A DNA stretch of 64,000 nucleotides from Deltaproteobacteria bacterium. Lineage in GTDB: Bacteria; Myxococcota_A; Polyangia; Polyangiales; JADJMO01. Positions 5,815 through 40,260 of the stretch are shown here, one piece after another. The number at the start of each line of letters is the position of its first letter. Within the stretch, counting starts at the first letter, position 1. The stretch is taken from NCBI GenBank assembly GCA_016182965.1, contig JACPFM010000024.1, positions 15,891 to 79,890 on the forward strand, given 5' to 3'. The position numbers were made by a program, and so were the translations under genes. The notes under the pieces are model-generated. The model searched no databases. It worked only from the letters and a program-made list of their open reading frames with translations, and was not told the DNA's origin.

Positions 5815-6957
5815 TCACGCCAGGGTATCGATCGTCGGGAAGCGCGCGTCTTCCGTGACGCAACCCCAGAGGAAGCACGCAAGACCGAGGTCACCCGTCC
5901 ACAGGGAGTAGCGTCCCTGCCCGTAGCGCGAGCGCGTCGCGTCGCAGCGCGCGATGGCGTTCATCGCGAAGGCCCGCGCACGATCGAGCCACGTCGCGTC
6001 GCCGGTCGCCGCGTGCAGCGCGAGGAACGCATACCCGTTACCGGCGTCGCCGTGACAGAGGTTCGTCCCCTTGCGGAGCGGGCCGGCGCGCTCGATGGCC
6101 GCGCCCGCCGCGCTCAGCGTCGGCAGCGACGCGCGCAGCCCGGCGAGGCCGACCACGAACCCGGGCGCGCCATGGCAGATCTGCATCAGGCGCGGCCGCT
6201 CCCCCGCGGTCGCCGGCCAGCTCGCGAGCTCGCCTTCTCGCACGGCCGTGCGCTCGGTCGCCGCGGCGACGCTCGTCTCGATCTCTTCGCGTACGCGCGG
6301 ATCGAGCAGCGGCGCGGCGCGCAGGAGCACCGCGGCGTTGCCGGCGAACCCGTGCACGAGGCCGAGGTAGCGCTCGGCGCCGCCGAAGAGACGCTGGGAG
6401 AACAGCCCGTCGGCGTCGCGCGTCGACCACATCGAGACGGCGCCGCGGCGCGCCAGCTCGGCGAAGCGGACGTCGCCGGTGCGCGCGTGCACCCGCGTGG
6501 CGACCAGCACGGCGCCGGGCGCGCCGAGCATCAGCTCGTTGGAGGGCAGCGCGAGGCACGCCTCGATCTCTCGCAGCAGCGCGTCCGCGAGCTCGGCGTC
6601 GGGCGCGACGGCGTTCGCGACGGCGAGCGCCCCGAGCCGGCCCATGAGGAACCCGCGTGATCGCGACCGCTCGTCGCACGTCGCGCGCGCGACGTCGCGG
6701 AGCCACGGCGGCGCGCTCGCGACGCCGGCGCGCGCGAGATGATCGATCGCCCACACGACGCCCGCGGTGCCCCAGTAGATCGACGTCGGCGGCGGCGGCC
6801 CGTGGGTCTCGGGCTCGTCGAGCGGATGCACGGGGAAGCCGCGCCCGTCGAACGCCCGCGCGGCGTCGTCGACGACGCGCGCGATGGCGTCGCGCGCGAC
6901 GCGCTCGTCCCAGACCCGCGACGGCAGCTCGAGGTGGCGGTCCGGCTCGAACAGCAT
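5815..6957 (-). CDS. LanC-like (lanthionine synthetase C-like) protein, stand-alone
   Basis: Zn-ligand / active-site motifs of the LanC fold are present: GLVHGFAGNA, MQICHGAPGFV, NLCHGDAGNGYAF. Start moved to the ATG at 6957 because GGAGGGGGG lies directly upstream; the track start at 6987 is a TTG. No signal peptide. Confidence 0.8.
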   Translation of the reverse strand: MLFEPDRHLELPSRVWDERVARDAIARVVDDAARAFDGRGFPVHPLDEPETHGPPPPTSIYWGTAGVVWAIDHLARAGVASAPPWLRDVARATCDERSRSRGFLMGRLGALAVANAVAPDAELADALLREIEACLALPSNELMLGAPGAVLVATRVHARTGDVRFAELARRGAVSMWSTRDADGLFSQRLFGGAERYLGLVHGFAGNAAVLLRAAPLLDPRVREEIETSVAAATERTAVREGELASWPATAGERPRLMQICHGAPGFVVGLAGLRASLPTLSAAGAAIERAGPLRKGTNLCHGDAGNGYAFLALHAATGDATWLDRARAFAMNAIARCDATRSRYGQGRYSLWTGDLGLACFLWGCVTEDARFPTIDTLA

Positions 6958-32229: not shown

Positions 32230-33077
32230 TCGTCGGCTCTCTTCTTGGCCGCGCTCTCCCGACCGGCGCGCTTCTTCGGCTTGGCCAACTTCACCTCGGG
32301 CTCAGGCTTCTTCGTCCCGAAGAAGTACACGAGGACGATGGAAAGGAAGTACAGCAGGCACAACGGTACGCTGACCAGGGTCTGGCTGACCACGTCGGGG
32401 GGGCTGAAGATGGCGCCCACCACGAAGGCGATCAGGATGAAGTAGCGACCGAAGCGCCAGAGCTGCCGGTGATCGACCAGCCCGACGATCCCCATGAACA
32501 GGAGGATCAGCGGCAGCTCGAACGACAGCCCGAAGATGAGGATCGTCTGCAGGACGGTGTCGAAGTACCCGCTCACCATCTGCATCGGCGCGATGCGCAT
32601 GTCGGTGCCGGGGATCGGCGTGTGCAGCGTGAAGAAGTACTTGAACGCCATCGGCAGCGCGACGAAGTACGCGAAGGCGCCGCCGGCGACGAAGAGCAGC
32701 GTCGCGAACGTCACGAACGACAGGCTCAGCCGGCGCTCGCGCTTGTAGAGCCCGGGCGCGATGAACGCCCACAGCTGGTAGAACATCGCGGGGCTCGCGA
32801 GGAACAGCGCCGCGTACAGCGCCACCCGCATGTAGACGGTGAACGGCTCGGCGAGCGCGCCGTGCAGCTCCGGCGCGTCCTTGAGGTTCGCGAGCTTCCA
32901 GGCCTTCGCCAGGGGCCGCGTGATGAAGCCGAGCAAGACGTCGGCCTTCCACCAGCAGATCAGGAAGGCGACCACGTAGATCTTGAGCGCGCGGATGATG
33001 CGTAGCCGGAGCTCCGAGAGGTGCTCCAGGAAGGTCATCCGCTTTTCGTCGAGATCGGGGCTGACCGCGGTCGTCAT
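32226..33077 (-). CDS. tatC: twin-arginine translocase subunit TatC
   Basis: MTFLEHLSELRLRIIR, FYQLWAFIAPGLYKRERR, FELPLILLFMGIVGLV. Six TM segments. Confidence 0.92.
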   Translation of the reverse strand: MTTAVSPDLDEKRMTFLEHLSELRLRIIRALKIYVVAFLICWWKADVLLGFITRPLAKAWKLANLKDAPELHGALAEPFTVYMRVALYAALFLASPAMFYQLWAFIAPGLYKRERRLSLSFVTFATLLFVAGGAFAYFVALPMAFKYFFTLHTPIPGTDMRIAPMQMVSGYFDTVLQTILIFGLSFELPLILLFMGIVGLVDHRQLWRFGRYFILIAFVVGAIFSPPDVVSQTLVSVPLCLLYFLSIVLVYFFGTKKPEPEVKLAKPKKRAGRESAAKKRADE

Positions 33078-33562
33078 GTGGCGCGCGCCTCCCCGGGCTC
33101 CGAGCTCGTCGACGTGCGCTCGGCGGACGCCGTGGCCGAACCAGCCCCGGTCGAGGCGGCCACCACGCCCTCGGGGACCTGCAGCTTCGGCAGCTCCGAC
33201 CCGAGCTCGGGGTAGACGAACGAGTCCTCGGGCAAGAGGCCCTGCGCGTCGGCGCCGATCACCGGGTACTCCCGCTCACGGCGGATGCGATCGACCTCGA
33301 CGTTGGGCAGCGACAGCTGCTCGGGCTGCCCGGGCTTGGCGTAGTCCATCCGCTCGATGTGGTCGGCGAGGCGCTCGAGATCCTGGAAGTCGCCGCGGAG
33401 GACCTCGTCGAGGCCGGTCTCCCGACGCACGTCGGTCATCAGCCGCTTGATCGAGCCGATGGTGCGGCCCGCCGTGCGCAAGAGCTTCGGCAGGTCCTTC
33501 GGCCCGATCACGATCAACGCGACCAGCGCTAGGACGACGAGCTCGCCGAAAGAAAAACCCAC
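33074..33562 (-). CDS. TatA/TatB family protein (TatB-like by length)
   Basis: GTG start. MGFSFGELVVLALVALIVIGPKDLPKL followed by an amphipathic helix and a long acidic tail. Overlaps the tatC start by 4 nt. Confidence 0.85.
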   Translation of the reverse strand: MGFSFGELVVLALVALIVIGPKDLPKLLRTAGRTIGSIKRLMTDVRRETGLDEVLRGDFQDLERLADHIERMDYAKPGQPEQLSLPNVEVDRIRREREYPVIGADAQGLLPEDSFVYPELGSELPKLQVPEGVVAASTGAGSATASAERTSTSSEPGEARAT

Positions 33563-33581
33563 GGGGGTGGCAGTCTAGCAA

Positions 33582-33689
33582 GTCGTCCGTCATCAGTCGT
33601 CAGTCGTCAGCGCTGCCACGTCCGGTCGGCTGTGCTTCGCCCCAGCGCGGTTCTCGCCCGATGACTGACGACTGACGACCGATGACTCA
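33582..33689. repeat. inverted heptamer-array cassette between the response-regulator gene and tatB
   Basis: Arm 33582-33610: GTCGTCC GTCATCA GTCGTCA GTCGTCA G. Arm 33662-33689: TGAC TGACGAC TGACGAC CGATGAC TCAG, which contains the regulator stop codon at 33687-33689. The arms are reverse complements (22 nt with 1 mismatch), separated by a roughly 54-nt core. Confidence 0.95.
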
Positions 33690-34295
33690 GAATTCGCCGA
33701 AGAGGTCCTGGATGCGCGCGTCGAGCGACACCGCGATCTTGTAGAGCGAGCTGATCGACGCCGACGACTCGGCGCGCTCGATCTGCGAGAGCAACGACAC
33801 CGACAGCCCCGTGCGCCGCGCCATCCGCTTCAGCGTGCGGATCTTCTCCTTGCGGAAATTCCGGATCGTGTCGCCGATCGCCTTGTGCAGCTGCTCCTCC
33901 GGCGTGCGCGCGAGGCCCTTCTTGCGCATCACACGGTTGAGCACCTCGCGGAACTCGTCGACGTTGAACGGCTTCTTGATGTAGTCGACAGCGTCGAGCT
34001 TCATCGACGCGACCGCCGTCTCGAGGTTCGGGTAGCCGGTGAAGATCACCACCGCGATGTCGCTGTCGACCTTCCGGATGCGCTTCAATACCTCGATGCC
34101 GTCGAGGCGCGGCATCATCAGGTCGAGCACGATCAGGTGGTAGCCGCCGTGGCGGACCTCCTCCTCGACCTGGAGCGGATCGCTGAGCGTCTTGACCTGG
34201 TAGCCATCCCGCTCCAGCAGCGTCTGCATGTAGTCGAGGATCGCGCGCTCATCGTCGACGATGAGGATCTTGATCGCGGGAAGCTGCACGGTCAT
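33687..34295 (-). CDS. response regulator, receiver plus XRE-type HTH
   Basis: ILIVDDE..HLIVLDLMMPRLDG..KP receiver domain. C-terminal LKRMARRTGLSVSLLSQIERAESSASISSLYKIAVSLDARIQDLF is a Cro/C1-type HTH. GC is lower than in neighbouring genes. Confidence 0.85.
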   Translation of the reverse strand: MTVQLPAIKILIVDDERAILDYMQTLLERDGYQVKTLSDPLQVEEEVRHGGYHLIVLDLMMPRLDGIEVLKRIRKVDSDIAVVIFTGYPNLETAVASMKLDAVDYIKKPFNVDEFREVLNRVMRKKGLARTPEEQLHKAIGDTIRNFRKEKIRTLKRMARRTGLSVSLLSQIERAESSASISSLYKIAVSLDARIQDLFGEF

Positions 34296-34473
34296 GCGGT
34301 CCAGTGTAAGCGGATCCGTCCTCGGTGTTCAAGCGGGTCGGCCGGGCCCCGCGCGGCTCGTGCACCGCCCGAAGCTCGAAACGCCGCGGAACCAAGCCGA
34401 TCGCGTGCTGACCCGGTGCGTCACGAGGATCCCTCTTGTCAGGTACGGCGCTTTGACGAATGGTGCGCGACCG

Positions 34474-35670
34474 ATGAGCGTCACGCCCTCCACCAAGAAC
34501 GCCGTTGCGGCGACCGCGGCGCACGAAAACGGCAAGAACGGCGCGGCTCACGTGTTGGGGCCGGCGCTCTCGCCGCTGGTCACGCACGAGCCGGTCCGCG
34601 TGATGCGCGAGGACGGCACGGTCGATCCGGCGCGTGATCCGAAGCTGTCGGACGACCGGCTCGTCGAGCTGTACTCGATGATGGTCCGCACGCGCATCAT
34701 CGACGAGCGCCTCGTGACCTTGCAGCGCCAGGGCCGCATCGGGTTCCACATTGGCTCACTCGGCGAAGAGGCGACGATCATCGGGTCGGCCGCCGCCGCG
34801 CGCCCGCAGGACTGGATCTTCCCCTGCTATCGCGAGTTCGGCGCGCTCCTGCTGCGGGGAATGCCGCTGCAGAGCTACGTCGACAACATGTTCGGCAACG
34901 CGAACGATGCGGTGCGCGGGCGCCAGATGCCCGACCACTACACCGGCAAGCCGTATCATTTCGGCTCCGTCTCCTCCCCCATCGGCACGCAGATCACGCA
35001 GGCTGTCGGCTTCGCGTGGGCGGCCAAGATGAAGAAGGACGACCTGGTCACCCTCGTGTACTTCGGCGAGGGCGCCACCTCGTCGAACGAGTTCCACAAC
35101 GGGGCGAACTTCGCCGGCGTCTTCAAGACCCCCACCGTCTTCCTCTGTCGCAACAACGGGTGGGCCATCAGCATCCCGGCGAGCAAGCAGTCGGCGTCGC
35201 AGACGTTCGCCGACAAGGCCGTCGCCTACGGCATCCGCGGCGTCCGCGTCGACGGCAACGACGTGCTGGCCGTCTACCTCGCCACGCGCGAGGCCATCGA
35301 GCGCGGCTCGCGCGGCGAGGGTTCGACGCTCCTCGAGCTCCTCACCTACCGCCTGTCCGGCCACTCCACGAGCGACGACCCGAAGGCCTACCGCAAGGAC
35401 ACCGAGGTCGAGGCCTGGAAGAGCAAGGACCCGAACGTGCGGTTCCGCGGGTGGCTCGAGCGCCGGGGCCTATGGAACGACGAGAAGCAGACCAGGCTCG
35501 AGGAGGCCGCCGCGGCCGAGCTGCAGGCGTGCGTGCAGGCCGCCGAGAAGGCGCCGACGCCGACGCTCGAGTCGATGTTCGACGACGTGTACGCGGAGCT
35601 GCCCTGGCACCTCCGCGAGCAGCGTGACGAGCTCGTGCGCGGCCCGCGCGCCAAGGGGCACGGACACTGA
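34474..35670 (+). CDS. 2-oxoisovalerate (branched-chain 2-oxoacid) dehydrogenase E1 alpha
   Basis: ATG at 34474. QGRIGFHIGSLGEEA, YREFGALL, TPP motif YFGEGATSSNEFHNGANFA, NNGWAIS, YRLSGHSTSDD. Confidence 0.9.
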   Translation: MSVTPSTKNAVAATAAHENGKNGAAHVLGPALSPLVTHEPVRVMREDGTVDPARDPKLSDDRLVELYSMMVRTRIIDERLVTLQRQGRIGFHIGSLGEEATIIGSAAAARPQDWIFPCYREFGALLLRGMPLQSYVDNMFGNANDAVRGRQMPDHYTGKPYHFGSVSSPIGTQITQAVGFAWAAKMKKDDLVTLVYFGEGATSSNEFHNGANFAGVFKTPTVFLCRNNGWAISIPASKQSASQTFADKAVAYGIRGVRVDGNDVLAVYLATREAIERGSRGEGSTLLELLTYRLSGHSTSDDPKAYRKDTEVEAWKSKDPNVRFRGWLERRGLWNDEKQTRLEEAAAAELQACVQAAEKAPTPTLESMFDDVYAELPWHLREQRDELVRGPRAKGHGH

Positions 35671-35671
35671 G

Positions 35672-35689
35672 GCGCGCCTACCGGCGCGC
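35672..35689 (+). terminator. GC hairpin directly after the E1alpha stop
   Basis: GCGCGCC-TACC-GGCGCGC: 7-bp stem and 4-nt loop, starting 2 nt after TGA (35668-35670). No U-tract, and inside an operon, so it may be a stabiliser or attenuator rather than a terminator. Confidence 0.35.
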
Positions 35690-35690
35690 A

Positions 35691-35718
35691 GTCGTCAGTC
35701 GTCAGTCGTCAGTCATCA
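35691..35718. repeat. heptamer array, stop-proximal arm: (GTCGTCA)x3 + GTCATCA
   Basis: Read directly: gtcgtca gtcgtca gtcgtca gtcatca. Confidence 0.95.
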
Positions 35719-35750
35719 GCCGAGACGCGAGGATGCCCTTGGCGCTGACA

Positions 35751-35764
35751 AGTGAGCGCTCACT
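35751..35764. repeat. perfect 14-bp palindrome AGTGAGCGCTCACT
   Basis: Self-complementary over all 14 positions. It lies between the heptamer arm and the octamer array. Confidence 0.9.
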
Positions 35765-35862
35765 ACTGAGGGAGACTGAGGGACTGAGGGACTGAGGGAC
35801 TGAGGGACTGAGGGACTGAGGGACTGAGGGACTGAGGGACTGAGGGACTGAGGGACTGAGGC
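35765..35862. repeat. tandem octamer array (ACTGAGGG): 11 perfect + 1 imperfect copy
   Basis: First copy at 35765-35772, then a 2-nt AG insert, then 10 perfect copies at 35775-35854, then ACTGAGGC. Eleven GGG tracts are spaced by 5 nt on the coding strand. Confidence 0.95.
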
Positions 35863-35882
35863 ACCGACGACCGACACCCTCT

Positions 35883-35943
35883 CGACTGACGACTGACGAC
35901 TGACGACTGACGACTGACGACTGACGACTGACGACTGACGACT
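35883..35943. repeat. heptamer array, start-proximal arm: (CGACTGA)x8 + CGACT (equivalent to TGACGAC units)
   Basis: Eight perfect units at 35883-35938 plus a partial unit. Followed by GGAG (35945-35948) and the E1beta ATG at 35957. Confidence 0.95.
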
Positions 35944-35956
35944 CGGAGACCGACCG

Positions 35957-36931
35957 ATGCCCCAGATGAACATGGTCCAGGCGATCAACGACGCGCTTCG
36001 CCTGGAGATGCGCAAGAACGACACGGTCGTGGTCCTCGGCGAAGACGTCGGGAAGGTCGGCGGCGTGTTCCGCGTCACCGCCGGGCTCTACGACGAGTTC
36101 GGCGACGACCGCGTCATCGACACGCCCCTGAGCGAGGGCGGGATCATCGGCACCGCGATCGGCATGGCCCTCTACGGCCTCGTGCCGGTGCCCGAGATCC
36201 AGTTCGGCGACTTCATCTTCCCCGCCTACGACCAGATCGTCAGCGAGCTCGCCAAGTTCCGCTACCGCTCCGGCGGCGAGTACGTGAGCAAGCTGGTCAT
36301 CCGCACGCCGGTGGGCGGCGGCATCCGCGGCGGCCACTACCACTCGCAGTCGCCCGAGTCGCAGTTCATCCACGTCGCCGGCCTGAAGGTGGTCTGCCCG
36401 TCGAACCCCTACGACGCCAAGGGCCTCTTGCTCGCGTCGATCCGCGATCCCGATCCCATCCTCTTCTTCGAGCCCAAGCGCATCTACCGCGCGGCCAAAG
36501 GCGAGGTGCCCGAGGGCGAGTACACCGTGCCGCTCGGCAAGGGCCAGATCGTCAAGCCCGGCAAGCACGTGACGGTCGTCGCGTGGGGCGCGATGCTCTA
36601 CGAGGCGCTCGACGCGGCGGCGCAGGCGCAACAGAAGGGCATCGACTGCGAGGTCATCGACCTCCGCACGCTGTGGCCCCTCGACATCGACATCATCGTC
36701 GAGAGCGTGAAGAAGACCGGCCGCGTGATCGTGGTCCACGAGGCGCCGAAGTCCTGCGGGTTCGGCAGCGAGATCGTGGCCCTGATCAACGAGAAGGCGT
36801 TCCTCCACCTCGAGGCGCCGCCGGTGCGCGTCACCGGCTTCGATACGCCGTTCCCCTACACGCTCGAGATGGAGTACCTCCCCCTCGCGCACCGCATCCT
36901 GCCCGCCATCGTGCAGACGGCGCAGTACTAG
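35957..36931 (+). CDS. 2-oxoisovalerate dehydrogenase E1 beta
   Basis: MPQMNMVQAINDALRLEM..VVLGEDVG..GGVFRVT..DTPLSEGGIIG..PEIQFGDF.., transketolase-like pyrimidine-binding and C-terminal domains. Confidence 0.92.
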   Translation: MPQMNMVQAINDALRLEMRKNDTVVVLGEDVGKVGGVFRVTAGLYDEFGDDRVIDTPLSEGGIIGTAIGMALYGLVPVPEIQFGDFIFPAYDQIVSELAKFRYRSGGEYVSKLVIRTPVGGGIRGGHYHSQSPESQFIHVAGLKVVCPSNPYDAKGLLLASIRDPDPILFFEPKRIYRAAKGEVPEGEYTVPLGKGQIVKPGKHVTVVAWGAMLYEALDAAAQAQQKGIDCEVIDLRTLWPLDIDIIVESVKKTGRVIVVHEAPKSCGFGSEIVALINEKAFLHLEAPPVRVTGFDTPFPYTLEMEYLPLAHRILPAIVQTAQY

Positions 36932-36965
36932 TCGTCAGTCATCAGTCATCAGTCATCAGTCATCC
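36931..36965. repeat. heptamer array, stop-proximal arm: GTCGTCA + (GTCATCA)x3 + GTCATCC
   Basis: Begins with the last base of the E1beta TAG (36929-36931). Confidence 0.95.
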
Positions 36966-37030
36966 GGGGGGCCTCGCTCGCCGATGCATGCTTCGAGGTG
37001 ACGGACGCTGACGAAAGAACCGACGGCTCA

Positions 37031-37088
37031 CGACTGACGACTCGCGCGACTGACGACTGACGACTGACGACTGACGACTGACGACTCG
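37031..37088. repeat. heptamer array, start-proximal arm: CGACTGA, CGACTCG, CG, (CGACTGA)x5, CGACTCG
   Basis: Five perfect units at 37047-37081. Followed by GAGGA (37088-37092) and the E2 ATG at 37100. Confidence 0.95.
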
Positions 37089-37099
37089 AGGAACTCAAC

Positions 37100-38524
37100 A
37101 TGGCCCGCTGGGAATTCAAGCTGCCCGACATCGGCGAAGGCGTGACCGAAGGCGAGATCGTCTCCTGGCTCGTGAAGCCGGGTGAGCACGTCAAGGAAGA
37201 CCAGCCGATGGTCGAGGTCATGACCGACAAGGCGACGGTCACCATCACCTCGCCGAAGACGGGGACGATCGCCGAGCTGCACGGCAACGTCGGCCAGGTC
37301 GTGAAGGTGCACGCGGTGCTGGTCAGCTACGACCTCGGCAACGGCGGCACCGCCTCCACCTCCGCGAGCACGTCGGCGGCCGCGGCCCCCTCCCCGAGCG
37401 TCGCGGCGGCGCCTACCGCGCAGTCCGCCGGGCTCGGGACGAAGGCGGCCGGTCCTGCTGCCACGGCGGTCGGCGACATCAGGGAGGATCTGCCGGGCAT
37501 GTCGCTGATGCGCGGCTCGGCCCCGGCCGAAGCCCCGATCGCGGCCGCCGCGCCGGCGACCTCCGGCTACTTCGCCGAGAAGCCGCTCGCCACGCCGGCG
37601 ACGCGCAAGCTCGCGCGCGATCTCGAGGTCGATCTGCGGCGGGTGCCGCCGACGGGCGAGAACGGCCGGGTGACCCGAGACGACGTGCAGCGCTTCAAGG
37701 GCGGAGCCCACGCCAACGGCCACCATGCGCCCGCCGCGCCCGCCGCGCCCGCCGCGGCGCCTCCCGCGCCGGCCGCCGCCCGCGCGCCGGTGGTCATCGC
37801 GCCGCCGGCCGGCAACGCACAGGAGCTCGAGGAGCGCGTCCCCTTCGTCGGCGTGCGCCGCAAGATCGCCGAGCGGATGGCGCAGTCCAAGCACACCGCG
37901 GCGCACTTCACCTTCGTCGAGGAGTGCGACGTCACCGAGCTGAAGAGGGTGCGCGAGCGCCTCAGGCCGCACGCCGAGAAGGCGGGCGTCAAGCTCACGC
38001 CGCTCGCGTTCATCGCCAAGGCGGTCGTCGCCGCGCTGGCCAGGCACCCGACGCTCAACAGCGCGCTCGACGAGTCGACCAACGAGCTGGTCATCCGCAA
38101 GTACGTCAACCTCGGCATCGCCGCCGCGACCGACGCGGGGCTGATGGTCCCGGTGGTCAAGGACGCCGATCGCAAGTCGATCCTCGAGCTCGCGCGCGAC
38201 ATCGAGCGCCTCGGCACCGGCGCGCGCGACGGCAAGCTCAAGCCGCAGGATCTGAGCGGGTCGACGTTCACCATCACGTCGCTCGGCGCGCAGGGCGGCC
38301 TGTTCGCCACGCCGATCATCAACTTCCCCGAGGTGGCGATCCTCGGCGTGCACCAGATCAAGCAGAAGCCGGTGGTGCGCGACGGGCAGATCGTCATCGG
38401 CGAGGTGATGCTCCTGTCGCTCTCGTTCGACCACCGCATCATCGACGGGCACGTCGGCGCGGCGTTCGCTTACGAGGTGATCGGCTACCTGCAGGAGCCC
38501 GATCGGCTGCTCCTCGAGGGCTGA
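37100..38524 (+). CDS. dihydrolipoamide acyltransferase E2 (branched-chain type)
   Basis: Lipoyl domain (VEVMTDKATVTITSP), Ala/Pro linkers, E3/E1-binding domain (ATPATRKLARDLEVDL) and a catalytic domain with SFDHRIIDG. Confidence 0.92.
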   Translation: MARWEFKLPDIGEGVTEGEIVSWLVKPGEHVKEDQPMVEVMTDKATVTITSPKTGTIAELHGNVGQVVKVHAVLVSYDLGNGGTASTSASTSAAAAPSPSVAAAPTAQSAGLGTKAAGPAATAVGDIREDLPGMSLMRGSAPAEAPIAAAAPATSGYFAEKPLATPATRKLARDLEVDLRRVPPTGENGRVTRDDVQRFKGGAHANGHHAPAAPAAPAAAPPAPAAARAPVVIAPPAGNAQELEERVPFVGVRRKIAERMAQSKHTAAHFTFVEECDVTELKRVRERLRPHAEKAGVKLTPLAFIAKAVVAALARHPTLNSALDESTNELVIRKYVNLGIAAATDAGLMVPVVKDADRKSILELARDIERLGTGARDGKLKPQDLSGSTFTITSLGAQGGLFATPIINFPEVAILGVHQIKQKPVVRDGQIVIGEVMLLSLSFDHRIIDGHVGAAFAYEVIGYLQEPDRLLLEG

Positions 38525-38602: not shown

Positions 38603-40150
38603 GTGCCCCGTTTCGATGTGAGCGAAGACGTCCCCAACGGCCCCGCGCCCCCCTCGCCCGAGCCGGCGCAGAGCGGCAGCGTCGCGGCGCGCTCGCAGGT
38701 CGACGAGACCTCGCCCGCGATCTCCGGCCGCGCGCACGCGTGGTTCTGGCTCGCCATCGGCTGCGCGATCGTCGGCGTGGTGCAGGTGCCGCTCGTGCTC
38801 GTCGCCCACCGCGGCGCGGCGCCCCCGACGGCCGTGGCGGCCGCCCCCGCGCCGCCGATCGCGAGCGCCGCCTCCGCGATCGCGACGCCTGCCGCGAGCG
38901 CGCTCCCGCCCGAGCCCGCCACCGCGCCGCGCCTCGCGCAGCTCGAGGGCGACGCGATCGAGGTGCTCCACACCAAGGTCGGCAAGCGCACGTGCGTCCA
39001 GGCGCTCGAGGCGCTCGGCGTCGCTCCCGGCGATCTCGCGCGCGTGTCGACCGCCCGCTCGCCGCTGCGGAAGCTCGACGGCTGCTCGCCGAACGATCGC
39101 GTCTTCGTGGCGCTCGGACGCGCCGATCGTCGGCTGCGCGGCCTCGAGATCGAGACCGCGCCGGGCACCCTCGTGCAGGTCCTCGAGAAGCAGGTCGCCG
39201 GCGAGGCGGGCGCGAGCCTCGAGCTCGTCGCCGAGGCGGTCACGCTGCCGGTGACGCACAAGCGCTTCACGACCTCATTCGTCGTGACGACCGACGTCCC
39301 TTCGGCGGTCGTCGCCGCAGGGCTCGACGGCTCGATCGTCGAGCTGCTCGACGAGGCGATCGGCTCGCGCCACGACGTCCCGGCGCCGGTGCGCGGGTCG
39401 ACCTTCCGGGTGATCGCCGACGCCACGCTCGTCGCGGGCCTGTTCGACCGCTGGGACGAGGTCGTCGCCTTCGAGTACCGCCCGCGCGCCGATCTCGCGC
39501 CCGTGCGCCTCTATCACACGCGCGGGAAGCCCGGCGCGCTCGGCTGGTTCGATCCCAAGGGGCATCAGCCGGTGCGCACGCGGTGGCGCATGCCGCTCGC
39601 CTTCCCGCGCATCACCTCGCGCTTCAACCCGCGGCGGCTCCACCCGGTGCTCAAGGTGGTGATGCCGCACAACGGCTGCGACTTCGCCGCGGCGCCCGGC
39701 ACGCCGGTGTACGCGATCGGCCCCGGCGTGGTGCAGTTCCGCGGCGACAGCGGCCCGAGCGGCAACCTGGTGACCATCGGGCACGAGGGCGGCATCGAGT
39801 CCGGCTACGCGCACCTGTCGCGGTTCGCGCCCGGCGTGGTCGCCGGCACCCACGTCGAGGCGCGCACCGTCGTCGGCTACGTCGGGACGACCGGCCGCTC
39901 GACGGGGCCGCACCTGCACCTCTCGGTGAAGCGCAACGGCGTCTTCGTCGATCCCCTGTCGCTCAAGATGGACGCCTTCCGCGTCGTCCCGCCGAGCGAG
40001 CGCTCCGGCTTCTCCGCGCGCAAGGCGGAGGCCGACGCGCTCCTCGACGCGATCCCGTGGCCGGCCGATCTGCCCGTGGTGGCGGCCCCCGCCGCGGCCT
40101 CCGCCTCCGCCGAACCGGCCGGCGAAGAAGGAGACGAGCCGCTGCACTGA
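38603..40150 (+). CDS. M23 family metallopeptidase, membrane-anchored
   Basis: GTG start. TM segment WFWLAIGCAIVGVVQVPLVLV. HNGCDFAAAPGTPVYA, GYAHLS and GPHLHLSV motifs. Confidence 0.8.
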   Translation: MPRFDVSEDVPNGPAPPSPEPAQSGSVAARSQVDETSPAISGRAHAWFWLAIGCAIVGVVQVPLVLVAHRGAAPPTAVAAAPAPPIASAASAIATPAASALPPEPATAPRLAQLEGDAIEVLHTKVGKRTCVQALEALGVAPGDLARVSTARSPLRKLDGCSPNDRVFVALGRADRRLRGLEIETAPGTLVQVLEKQVAGEAGASLELVAEAVTLPVTHKRFTTSFVVTTDVPSAVVAAGLDGSIVELLDEAIGSRHDVPAPVRGSTFRVIADATLVAGLFDRWDEVVAFEYRPRADLAPVRLYHTRGKPGALGWFDPKGHQPVRTRWRMPLAFPRITSRFNPRRLHPVLKVVMPHNGCDFAAAPGTPVYAIGPGVVQFRGDSGPSGNLVTIGHEGGIESGYAHLSRFAPGVVAGTHVEARTVVGYVGTTGRSTGPHLHLSVKRNGVFVDPLSLKMDAFRVVPPSERSGFSARKAEADALLDAIPWPADLPVVAAPAAASASAEPAGEEGDEPLH

Positions 40151-40171: not shown

Positions 40172-40192
40172 CTTCGACCTTCGACCTTCGAC
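40172..40192. repeat. tandem heptamer (CTTCGAC)x3
   Basis: gCTTCGACCTTCGACCTTCGACcc in the M23 to RavA-like spacer. Confidence 0.9.
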
Positions 40193-40260
40193 CCAGCGCG
40201 CATCCATCGCGGCAACGCTCCGGCCACGCGAGCGCGAAAGTGCACTACGATGGCGCCCCG

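Follow-up and report, generated by a model that had tools for sequence, protein, structure and literature searches.

Why are the genes for two subunits of one 2-oxoacid dehydrogenase, E1α and E1β, separated by 286 nt consisting largely of tandem repeats? The spacer lies in a 64,000-nt stretch of contig JACPFM010000024.1 (assembly GCA_016182965.1), referred to here as the window, in a bkd operon that continues with an E2 acyltransferase gene. A preliminary description of the spacer had listed its repeats and tied them to the assembly of E1α and E1β in equal amounts. Comparison of neighboring junctions and related loci places the spacer instead among three paired-array elements at this locus, whose arms are predicted to pair with each other and whose effect, if any, would not be specific to the E1 subunits.

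Three neighboring spacers are palindromes built from heptamer arrays

Each of three neighboring intercistronic spacers is a microsatellite-built palindrome that spans the distance from the stop codon of one gene to the Shine-Dalgarno (SD) sequence of the next. Besides the E1α-E1β spacer, inverted heptamer arrays fill the E1β-E2 spacer (36930-37086) and the spacer between a response regulator gene and tatA (33581-33687), which belong to a divergent operon (Table 1). The layout common to the three is stop codon, (GTCAGTC)n, core, (GACTGAC)m, and start codon, with an SD sequence before the start in the two bkd spacers, and polarity relative to transcription is identical in all of them, although the two operons are divergent. 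The arm of GTCAGTC type is free of stops and adjoins the upstream stop codon, and the arm of GACTGAC type, with TGA in three frames, ends 13 to 18 nt before the start and, in the two bkd spacers, 2 to 3 nt before the ribosome-binding site. On its transcribed strand, the regulator-tatA spacer reads TGA, GTCATCG GTCGTCA GTCGTCA GTCATCG, core, CTGACGA CTGACGA CTGATGA CGGACGA, 18 nt, and GTG; a clear SD sequence was not seen between the 3' arm and this GTG. The E1β-E2 element has a core of 57 nt and arms in a mixed state, with four AGTCATC units in the 5' arm versus GACGACT in the 3' arm.

All elements that the preliminary description had listed for the E1α-E1β spacer were recovered in the sequence and by Tandem Repeats Finder (TRF), and its estimate of about 20 GACTGA cores agrees with the 19 counted on the + strand within 35774-35938. 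No other cluster of this core occurs anywhere in the 64-kb window. TRF reported (CAGTCGT)4.4 at 35689-35719 in the 5' arm (95% matches), (CGACTGA)8.7 at 35883-35943 in the 3' arm (100% perfect), and (GACTGAGG)11.0 at 35774-35861 (100% perfect); a degenerate first unit, starting at 35765, stands before the last of these. This octamer array contains 13 GAGG motifs and TGA in three frames, has GACTGA in common with the 3' arm, and appears to have grown from the same GACTGA core within the central part of the element. The 14-bp palindrome to which the preliminary description also drew attention is present but unremarkable, as the window holds 27 perfect palindromes of at least 14 bp, and it was rejected as a candidate operator on these grounds.

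The DNA of the window is GC rich (~72%), and the genes flanking the E1α-E1β spacer are intact. The heptamer and octamer arrays of this spacer are the top-scoring tandem repeats of the window by TRF, and of the 10 perfect arrays with three copies or more, 5 have a period of 7. At the thresholds set (complementarity of ≥85%, length of ≥25 nt, and arms ≤400 nt apart), the 64 kb contain no inverted repeats other than those of the heptamers. The TRF copy numbers of the heptamer arrays (4.4, 8.7, 5.0, and 9.0, at 85 to 100% matches) and their location, always between genes, characterize them as intergenic heptanucleotide simple sequence repeats.

Two further features of the window were recorded. A small perfect (CTTCGAC)3.1 array without an inverted partner lies at 40172-40193, between codirectional genes and after the open reading frame (ORF) 38603-40150. 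In addition, the E1α ORF as listed, which has 469 amino acids (aa) when counted from the first ATG, runs into the divergent regulator gene (window 34261-34480); the lengths in the related loci L108, L109, and L110 (455, 390, and 397 aa) point to an ATG near 34474 as the true start.

Table 1. Genes, repeat arms, and translation signals at the three junctions (window coordinates)
Feature	Position	Strand	Basis or remark
tatA/B gene	33074-33562	-	GTG start at 33562
Regulator-tatA 3' arm	33581-33608	-	Ends 18 nt before tatA/B GTG
Regulator-tatA 5' arm (in direction of transcription)	33660-33687	-	Begins at regulator stop codon, 33687-33689
Response regulator gene	33687-34295	-	Response_reg and HTH_3 (XRE-type)
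E1α ORF	34261-35670	+	Pfam E1_dh (2-oxoacid dehydrogenase E1α)
E1α stop codon TGA	35668-35670	+	Sequence
7-bp GC hairpin GCGCGCC-UACC-GGCGCGC	35672-35689	+	Directly 3' of E1α stop; present in minimum-free-energy fold
E1α-E1β 5' arm, (GTCGTCA)x3.7 then GTCATCA	35689-35722	+	Inverted-repeat pairs; stop-free in all frames
Unique core segment, including the palindrome	35723-35764	+	Sequence
14-bp perfect palindrome AGTGAGCGCTCACT	35751-35764	+	Sequence
Octamer array, degenerate first unit and (GACTGAGG)x11	35765-35862	+	TRF; GACTGA common to 3' arm
E1α-E1β 3' arm, (CGACTGA)x8.7	35880-35943	+	Reverse complement of 5' arm; TGA in three frames
SD sequence GGAG	35945-35948	+	2 nt past end of 3' arm
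E1β ATG	35957 (segment 35945-35959)	+	Start 14 nt past end of 3' arm
E1β ORF	35957-36931	+	Pfam Transket_pyr and Transketolase_C
E1β-E2 5' arm, AGTCGTC then (AGTCATC)x4	36930-36964	+	Starts inside E1β stop TAG, 36929-36931
E1β-E2 3' arm, (GACGACT)x9 with one interruption	37022-37086	+	TRF, inverted repeat
SD sequence GAGGA; E2 ATG	37088-37092; 37100	+	After E1β-E2 3' arm
E2 acyltransferase ORF	37100-38524	+	Downstream of E1β

Paired arrays in close relatives

The closest relatives of the E1β protein (85 to 95% identity) are found in Polyangiaceae (Myxococcota), including Chondromyces, Minicystis, and Polyangium. Junction lengths were compared in 84 related loci, obtained from public assemblies and a metagenome scan. 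The E1α-E1β junction has a median of 34 nt and a maximum of 151 nt in 75 relatives, and the 286-nt spacer of the window is the longest, which bears out the earlier expectation that junctions of this family are short. The E1β-E2 junction, at 168 nt in the window, has a median of 25 nt and a maximum of 274 nt in 73 relatives.

The Joint Genome Institute (JGI) metagenome contig L108, with an E1β 94% identical and coding DNA 78 to 83% identical to those of the window, matches the window in gene order and has inverted heptamer arrays in all three corresponding spacers. Its regulator-tatA arms are made of the same unit as in the window and are 93 to 95% identical, whereas the coding DNA next to this element is 78% identical and the core cannot be aligned. 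In the other two spacers the units differ from those of the window, but the arms are still complementary: (AGAGTCY)5 and (CTAGACY)4 in the E1α-E1β spacer, and (CAGTCGA/CAGTYAA)4, duplicated, and (CTGTCGA)4 in the E1β-E2 spacer. Two shorter contigs end inside arrays on both sides of E1β. L204 (1,047 nt; E1β 95% identical) has at least four CGACTGA units and then 20 nt upstream of the E1β ATG, and TAG followed directly by TCGTCAGTCGTCAG... downstream. L208 (E1β 91% identical) has new units, with (CGACTCT)2-3...CGACTGA upstream and TGA followed by GTC and at least three copies of GGTCCAG downstream. Heptamer arrays therefore occur at matching junctions in three close Polyangiaceae relatives with different copy numbers and units, and arm complementarity is kept wherever both arms were recovered.

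The only part of the E1α-E1β spacer that is conserved in relatives is CGGAG...ATG. Perfect period-7 arrays with at least three copies number five in 467 kb of related loci, four of them in L108. None of the 208 fetched loci contains the octamer array, and no paper in the literature searched mentions CGACTGA or ACTGAGGG arrays. One locus, P0004/L112, proved more distant and paralogue-like, with a spacer of 12 nt, and was set aside as uninformative.

The related loci also provided observations on spacer sequences other than the paired heptamers. A GC-rich hairpin immediately after the E1α stop recurs in L205, L116, and L118, which are relatives without heptamer arrays, and may be an ancestral intercistronic part of the spacer. 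Short-read assemblies break exactly inside the arrays flanking E1β (L204, 1-47 and 1023-1047; L208, 1-44 and 1020-1049); such arrays fragment assemblies and are probably underrepresented in metagenome-assembled genomes. In the divergent regulator/E1α region of L108 (4280-4490), A/T-rich segments and an inverted repeat of ~33 nt, GGCACCAAGGATCCAAGGAGGCACCAAGGATCC, flank a perfect (CGCCCCG)7.7 array; this element is absent from the window. Long E1β-E2 spacers with inverted repeats at their ends were found in L189 (4975-5250), L191 (4975-5241), L164 (1201-1412), and L131 (3079-3262). The arms in L189 and L191 are hexamer arrays, CGTGCC and GGGCAC. All four loci are from more distant Polyangiaceae-type relatives, and their end-to-end inverted repeats suggest that long operon spacers of this group are generally self-folding. 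The E1α-E1β spacers of L126 (3907-4001) and L127 (2476-2570) contain three direct copies of TTTCACCCCGACCG with a period of 14.

Predicted folding of the spacers

An arm-to-arm stem dominates the predicted fold of all six complete spacers (window 33563-33686, 35671-35956, and 36932-37099; L108 3466-3590, 5850-6000, and 6976-7145), with z scores of -3.1 to -6.3. In the window, the predicted folding free energies are -135.7 kcal/mol (z, -6.3) for the E1α-E1β spacer, -79.4 kcal/mol (z, -3.6) for the E1β-E2 spacer, and -77.0 kcal/mol (z, -6.0) for the regulator-tatA spacer, and for none of the three did any shuffled sequence fold as well. The three spacers of L108 gave z scores of -4.9, -3.1, and -5.1. 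The view of the E1α-E1β spacer as almost wholly repeat is upheld, and so is the claim that its stem could form in at least five registers: the right array offers five perfectly matched registers to a perfect left segment of 26 nt and six to a 21-bp version of it.

In the predicted ensembles, 90 to 99% of 5'-arm pairing is with the 3' arm (98% in the E1α-E1β spacer). The 5'-proximal registers are favored in the latter. In its 3' arm, the bin nearest the SD sequence is paired (0.05 unpaired), and the four heptamer bins upstream of it are 42 to 69% unpaired. At 37 to 52% unpaired, the SD windows are neither buried nor wholly open. By itself, the 3' arm (CGACUGA)n is essentially without structure (-4.9 kcal/mol). 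The octamer array alone forms a weak rod-like hairpin (-32.5 kcal/mol), which ViennaRNA with quadruplex energies favors over a quadruplex.

Several known identities were considered and rejected. The octamer array (35770-35854) is the only G3N1-7 x4 quadruplex-type motif (G3N5) on the + strand of the window and conforms to the quadruplex-type repeats of Rehm et al. 2015 (at least four G3 tracts, with loops of 1 to 7 nt). A G-quadruplex as the main structure is nevertheless not favored by the energy model, and the motif is absent from the other five spacers. Rfam 15 gave no gathering-score match in the window and none at an E value of ≤1 in 33400-37200, leaving no known RNA family to which the elements could be assigned. 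Neither a sigma-70-like promoter nor an intrinsic terminator (GC stem plus U tract) was found in the three spacers, and identity as an intrinsic terminator was discarded. Binding sites for the adjacent XRE-type response regulator were dismissed because L108 has three different units in its three spacers.

Arrays of the same unit in other phyla

A scan for (GACTGAC)3 in one genome per GTDB species returned at least 107 loci from many phyla, with GC contents of 37 to 76%. One of them, L064 (Thermomicrobiales), has TAG followed directly by (TCGTCAG)4, a 45-nt core, (CTGACGA)4, an SD sequence, and ATG between two codirectional genes. Inverted array pairs were also found in L062, L051, and L002, and a single forward array lies directly upstream of an SD sequence and ATG in L040, L046, L008, L100, and L073. 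Among the matches listed, all five inverted pairs spaced by ≤700 nt read 5'-(GTCAGTC)n...(GACTGAC)n-3' (two-sided P = 0.06), arrays with the ATG of a long ORF ≤40 nt downstream were more often forward (20) than reverse (7; P = 0.013; 115 arrays), and no enrichment next to 2-oxoacid dehydrogenase genes was seen.

This wide distribution is not evidence of a special unit, because two control heptamers of matched composition turn up in viral contigs as often as the target heptamer does (3 and 4 loci versus 4) and because a rough density of one period-7 array per 100 to 450 kb (5 arrays in 467 kb) predicts hundreds or more of any heptamer in 596 Gb. The notion that CGACTGA is an intrinsically special heptamer was abandoned for these reasons. 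In L008 (Roseiflexaceae), a (CGACTGA)8.6 array (approximately 6241-6300) lies 12 nt upstream of an ftsZ-like start codon and is preceded, right after the upstream stop, by (GCAGTCA)4, a different and partly complementary heptamer.

Relationship to known repeat systems

Repetitive extragenic palindromic (REP) sequences, bacterial interspersed mosaic elements (BIMEs), REP-derived hairpin elements (REPINs), and Correia palindromes of Escherichia coli, Pseudomonas, and Neisseria are extragenic, lie between cotranscribed genes, and form RNA hairpins. Such hairpins shield upstream mRNA from 3' exonucleases or are cut by RNase III, and the palindromes are dispensable and strain variable. These families have a fixed consensus and hundreds of dispersed copies, and REPINs and miniature inverted-repeat transposable elements (MITEs) have a transposase partner or target-site duplications. 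The elements described here are likewise palindromes between operon genes that appear dispensable, vary between relatives, and are predicted to form RNA hairpins. In contrast, their arms are microsatellites of variable unit, without target-site duplications or dispersed copies in the 64 kb, and identity as REP or REPIN was rejected on the lack of many dispersed consensus copies within this stretch.

Heptameric microsatellites are overrepresented in bacterial intergenic DNA, possibly through polymerase slippage, according to the work of Mrazek (2007) as cited in PMC4692102. For the TAACTGA repeats of Beggiatoaceae, cyanobacteria, and Bacteroidetes, which face start codons, contain stops in every frame, and lack structure, a translational role has been proposed (MacGregor 2015, PMC4679880). 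They resemble the present arrays as tandem heptamers with an ACTGA core that are almost all intergenic, lie in forward orientation a few nucleotides before the start, have stops in three frames forward and none in reverse, are unstructured when the array is taken alone, and occur inside essential operons (PMC4679880). The 3' arms of the window share this orientation and the stops in all frames, at 13 to 18 nt before the starts. The two systems differ in several respects. The unit here is CGACTGA or GACTGAGG, with only the ACTGA core in common. A normal SD sequence lies between array and start, whereas SD sequences are rare in BOGUAY repeat regions, and hairpin-forming inverted pairs are present here, compared with one inverted case in 170 sets in BOGUAY (PMC4679880). 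Furthermore, the units vary by junction and species, and the host is a high-GC myxobacterium.

The G-rich GGGAATC and GGGGAYT heptamers of Xanthomonas and Nostoc are located preferentially between co-oriented ORFs, are transcribed, and differ at corresponding loci of related species (PMC4692102). Their similarity to the present arrays extends to a location within operons (pecE-pecF), proximity to stop and start codons, and occasional inverted pairs (Rehm et al. 2015, PMC4692102). They are, however, defined by quadruplex-forming G tracts, with four units preferred (PMC4692102), whereas G3 tracts are here confined to the central octamer, the arms are not G rich, and paired arms are the rule. In Geobacter metallireducens, paired heptanucleotide arrays have the consensus MTYCTGA x5 (Aklujkar et al. 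2009, PMC2700814). These too are multicopy tandem heptamers (with CTGA in the consensus) and octamers, mostly in opposite-strand pairs, but they are dispersed through the genome and were read as putative DNA-binding sites of a global regulator (PMC2700814), while the present elements are clustered at three junctions within transcription units. A preprint on Nostoc reports that deletion of a heptamer repeat alters reporter output, with no mechanism given (10.1101/2022.06.06.494920). Intergenic heptamer repeats without an assigned function were thus already known; what is new here is the occurrence of paired, covarying arrays in a myxobacterial lineage.

Possible function and alternative explanations

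The evidence is, in our judgment, evenly poised on the interpretation that we favor: inverted arms that are built by slippage and coevolve would pair within the polycistronic mRNA, looping out the spacer, with a likely effect on mRNA processing, stability, or translational coupling and not on E1 stoichiometry specifically. Replication slippage in 7-nt steps would expand and homogenize each arm, and hairpin-templated copying or selection for pairing, alone or in combination, would keep the arms complementary, so that the unit could be replaced in both arms together. Transcribed as part of the operon mRNA, the arms would zip into a stem of at least 26 bp that can slide among five or six registers. 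Such a stem would loop out approximately 150 to 190 nt and hold the upstream stop codon and the downstream SD sequence and AUG at the two sides of its base, with the SD sequence and AUG placed just outside, and the 286-nt spacer would therefore be structurally short. A ribosome terminating upstream could then melt the base of the stem by the downstream SD sequence, providing translational coupling, and the long duplex would be a plausible barrier to 3' exonucleases or target of RNase III, conferring segmental mRNA stability. We infer that an effect of this kind would be generic to operon junctions.

The link to E1α:E1β stoichiometry made in the preliminary description, in contrast, found no support, because the same type of element is generic to junctions at this locus, being present between E1β and E2 and in an unrelated, divergent regulator-to-tatA operon, and because close relatives (E1β 90 to 93% identical) manage with plain spacers.

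The proposed looped-out stem draws on several lines of evidence. Architecture and polarity are shared by the three elements of the window despite the divergence of the operons, no promoter, terminator, or Rfam family is present, and both flanking genes are intact. The layout of stop codon, arm, core, arm, SD sequence, and ATG recurs in the unrelated Thermomicrobiales operon of L064. Between the window and L108, L204, and L208, the architecture appears to be kept while unit sequences change, and the AGTCATC and GACGACT arms of the E1β-E2 spacer look like an intermediate state of such a replacement. The regulator-tatA arms are better conserved than the core between them or the coding DNA beside them. 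Finally, the arms lie 87 to 170 nt apart, a distance more favorable to folding of RNA than to extrusion of a cruciform from duplex DNA.

Other observations weigh against this interpretation. Short plain spacers occur in L205 (E1β 91% identical), P0003 (93%; 39 nt), L109 and L111 (both 90%), and Chondromyces crocatus, and relatives with 90 to 93% identical E1β have plain spacers of 39 to 70 nt. Because these relatives are equally close and lack the elements, the paired arrays are best described from the comparative data as a lineage-restricted and dispensable trait, with stable position and architecture and rapid turnover of units. In the six spacers, 14 of 18 single stem mismatches are an A in the 5' arm opposite a C in the 3' arm on the sense strand, and would be G·U wobbles in antisense RNA or the template DNA strand; the antisense fold is the more stable in four of the six. 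This asymmetry tracks the direction of transcription and not the chromosome strand, and the excess of A·C over G·U speaks against a perfect mRNA helix being under strong selection. Neutral expansion into unconstrained sequence would also place the arms at the extremes of a spacer, the high purity of the arrays would reflect recent slippage and not selection, and inverted duplication or template switching could yield complementarity without selection. The arrays may accordingly be a neutral mutational by-product of frequent 7-nt slippage and of inverted copies arising by snap-back or template switching, the hairpin being tolerated without function. We regard this explanation as possible, if on balance somewhat improbable. 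It accommodates the patchy presence and absence of arrays among relatives with 90 to 95% E1β identity, the fast turnover of units, the signal of recent expansion in perfect arrays, the A·C mismatches left uncorrected in the stems, the equal frequency of control heptamers in viral contigs, and the general overrepresentation of intergenic heptameric microsatellites in many bacteria, which is ascribed to polymerase slippage (Mrazek 2007, as cited in PMC4692102). It accounts less readily for arrays that persist at the same three junctions across approximately 20% divergence of coding DNA, for regulator-tatA arms that enclose a randomized core yet have diverged less than coding DNA, for arms still complementary after replacement of the unit, and for the restriction of arrays, within 64 kb, to the three spacers and one tiny array.

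The remaining alternatives concern binding, DNA structure, and mobility. Binding of the units by a multimeric or cooperative RNA-binding protein (S1, Csp, or CsrA-like), or titration of 30S subunits through GAGG motifs, is suggested by the 13 GAGG motifs of the octamer array, the lack of structure in an isolated (CGACUGA)n array, the bias toward forward arrays before ATG codons among the matches listed from other phyla, and 3' arms that end, like TAACTGA arrays (PMC4679880), 13 nt (bkd) or 18 nt (tatA) before the start. No single sequence-specific binder would fit, however, because units differ between spacers and between species at one junction, and the octamer array is found only in the window genome among the 208 loci, which makes the binding explanation very unlikely. 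We know of no binder of CGACTGA-type repeat units. A structure acting at the level of DNA or transcription, whether a template-strand hairpin, a G-quadruplex or R-loop of the octamer on the nontemplate strand, or a terminator without a U tract that imposes polarity on the operon, would agree with the better pairing of the antisense or template strand, with the single G3N1-7 x4 motif on the + strand, and with the G-rich heptamers of Xanthomonas and Nostoc, described on the sense strand just past stop codons (PMC4692102). It too is highly improbable, since the energy model does not favor the quadruplex, only one of six spacers has a G-rich array, a U tract is absent, polarity between E1α and E1β would be a disadvantage, and a loop of 87 to 170 nt is unfavorable for cruciform extrusion. 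That a mobile palindrome of the MITE, REP, or REPIN-like kind inserts at operon junctions is scarcely credible. The arms do resemble terminal inverted repeats that share their outer ends (AGTCGTCAG...CTGACGACT), and other long E1β-E2 spacers of relatives (L164, L131, and L189) have unrelated inverted repeats at both ends, but none of the three elements has a target-site duplication (flanks GTACT/CGAGG, GCGC/CGGA, and TCTGA/TGCTA) and their cores are unrelated, so that identity as a MITE was rejected. Moreover, the three copies lie within 3.5 kb and the rest of the 64 kb has none, the number of units per arm varies and is unequal between paired arms, and units differ at orthologous sites.

Significance

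To our knowledge, intergenic heptameric microsatellites have been recognized since 2007 without a function being established for any of them. The locus described here is a compact natural experiment, with three junctions, arrays present in at least four related genomes and missing from several others, and arms that stay complementary through replacement of their unit. If the hairpins do not matter, it would be a clean case of slippage and inverted duplication building large, functionless RNA structures, and a caution for structure-based screens for noncoding RNA. If they do matter, the locus would show how an operon that needs stoichiometric subunits tolerates or exploits a 286-nt spacer, and would offer a directly testable model for the role of heptamer repeats. 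An extension of the latter, which we put forward as unlikely but worth stating, is that paired heptamer arrays are a selected class of "slippery" intercistronic RNA hairpins, in which coevolving arms would hold a stop codon and the next ribosome-binding site together and keep coupling across long spacers, and changes in copy number would shift the register and tune downstream expression. In addition, forward CGACTGA-type arrays directly upstream of starts in Chloroflexota, Planctomycetota, Acidobacteriota, and Myxococcota may be the high-GC counterpart of TAACTGA repeats and, if this is true, would point to a widespread, uncharacterized translational leader element.

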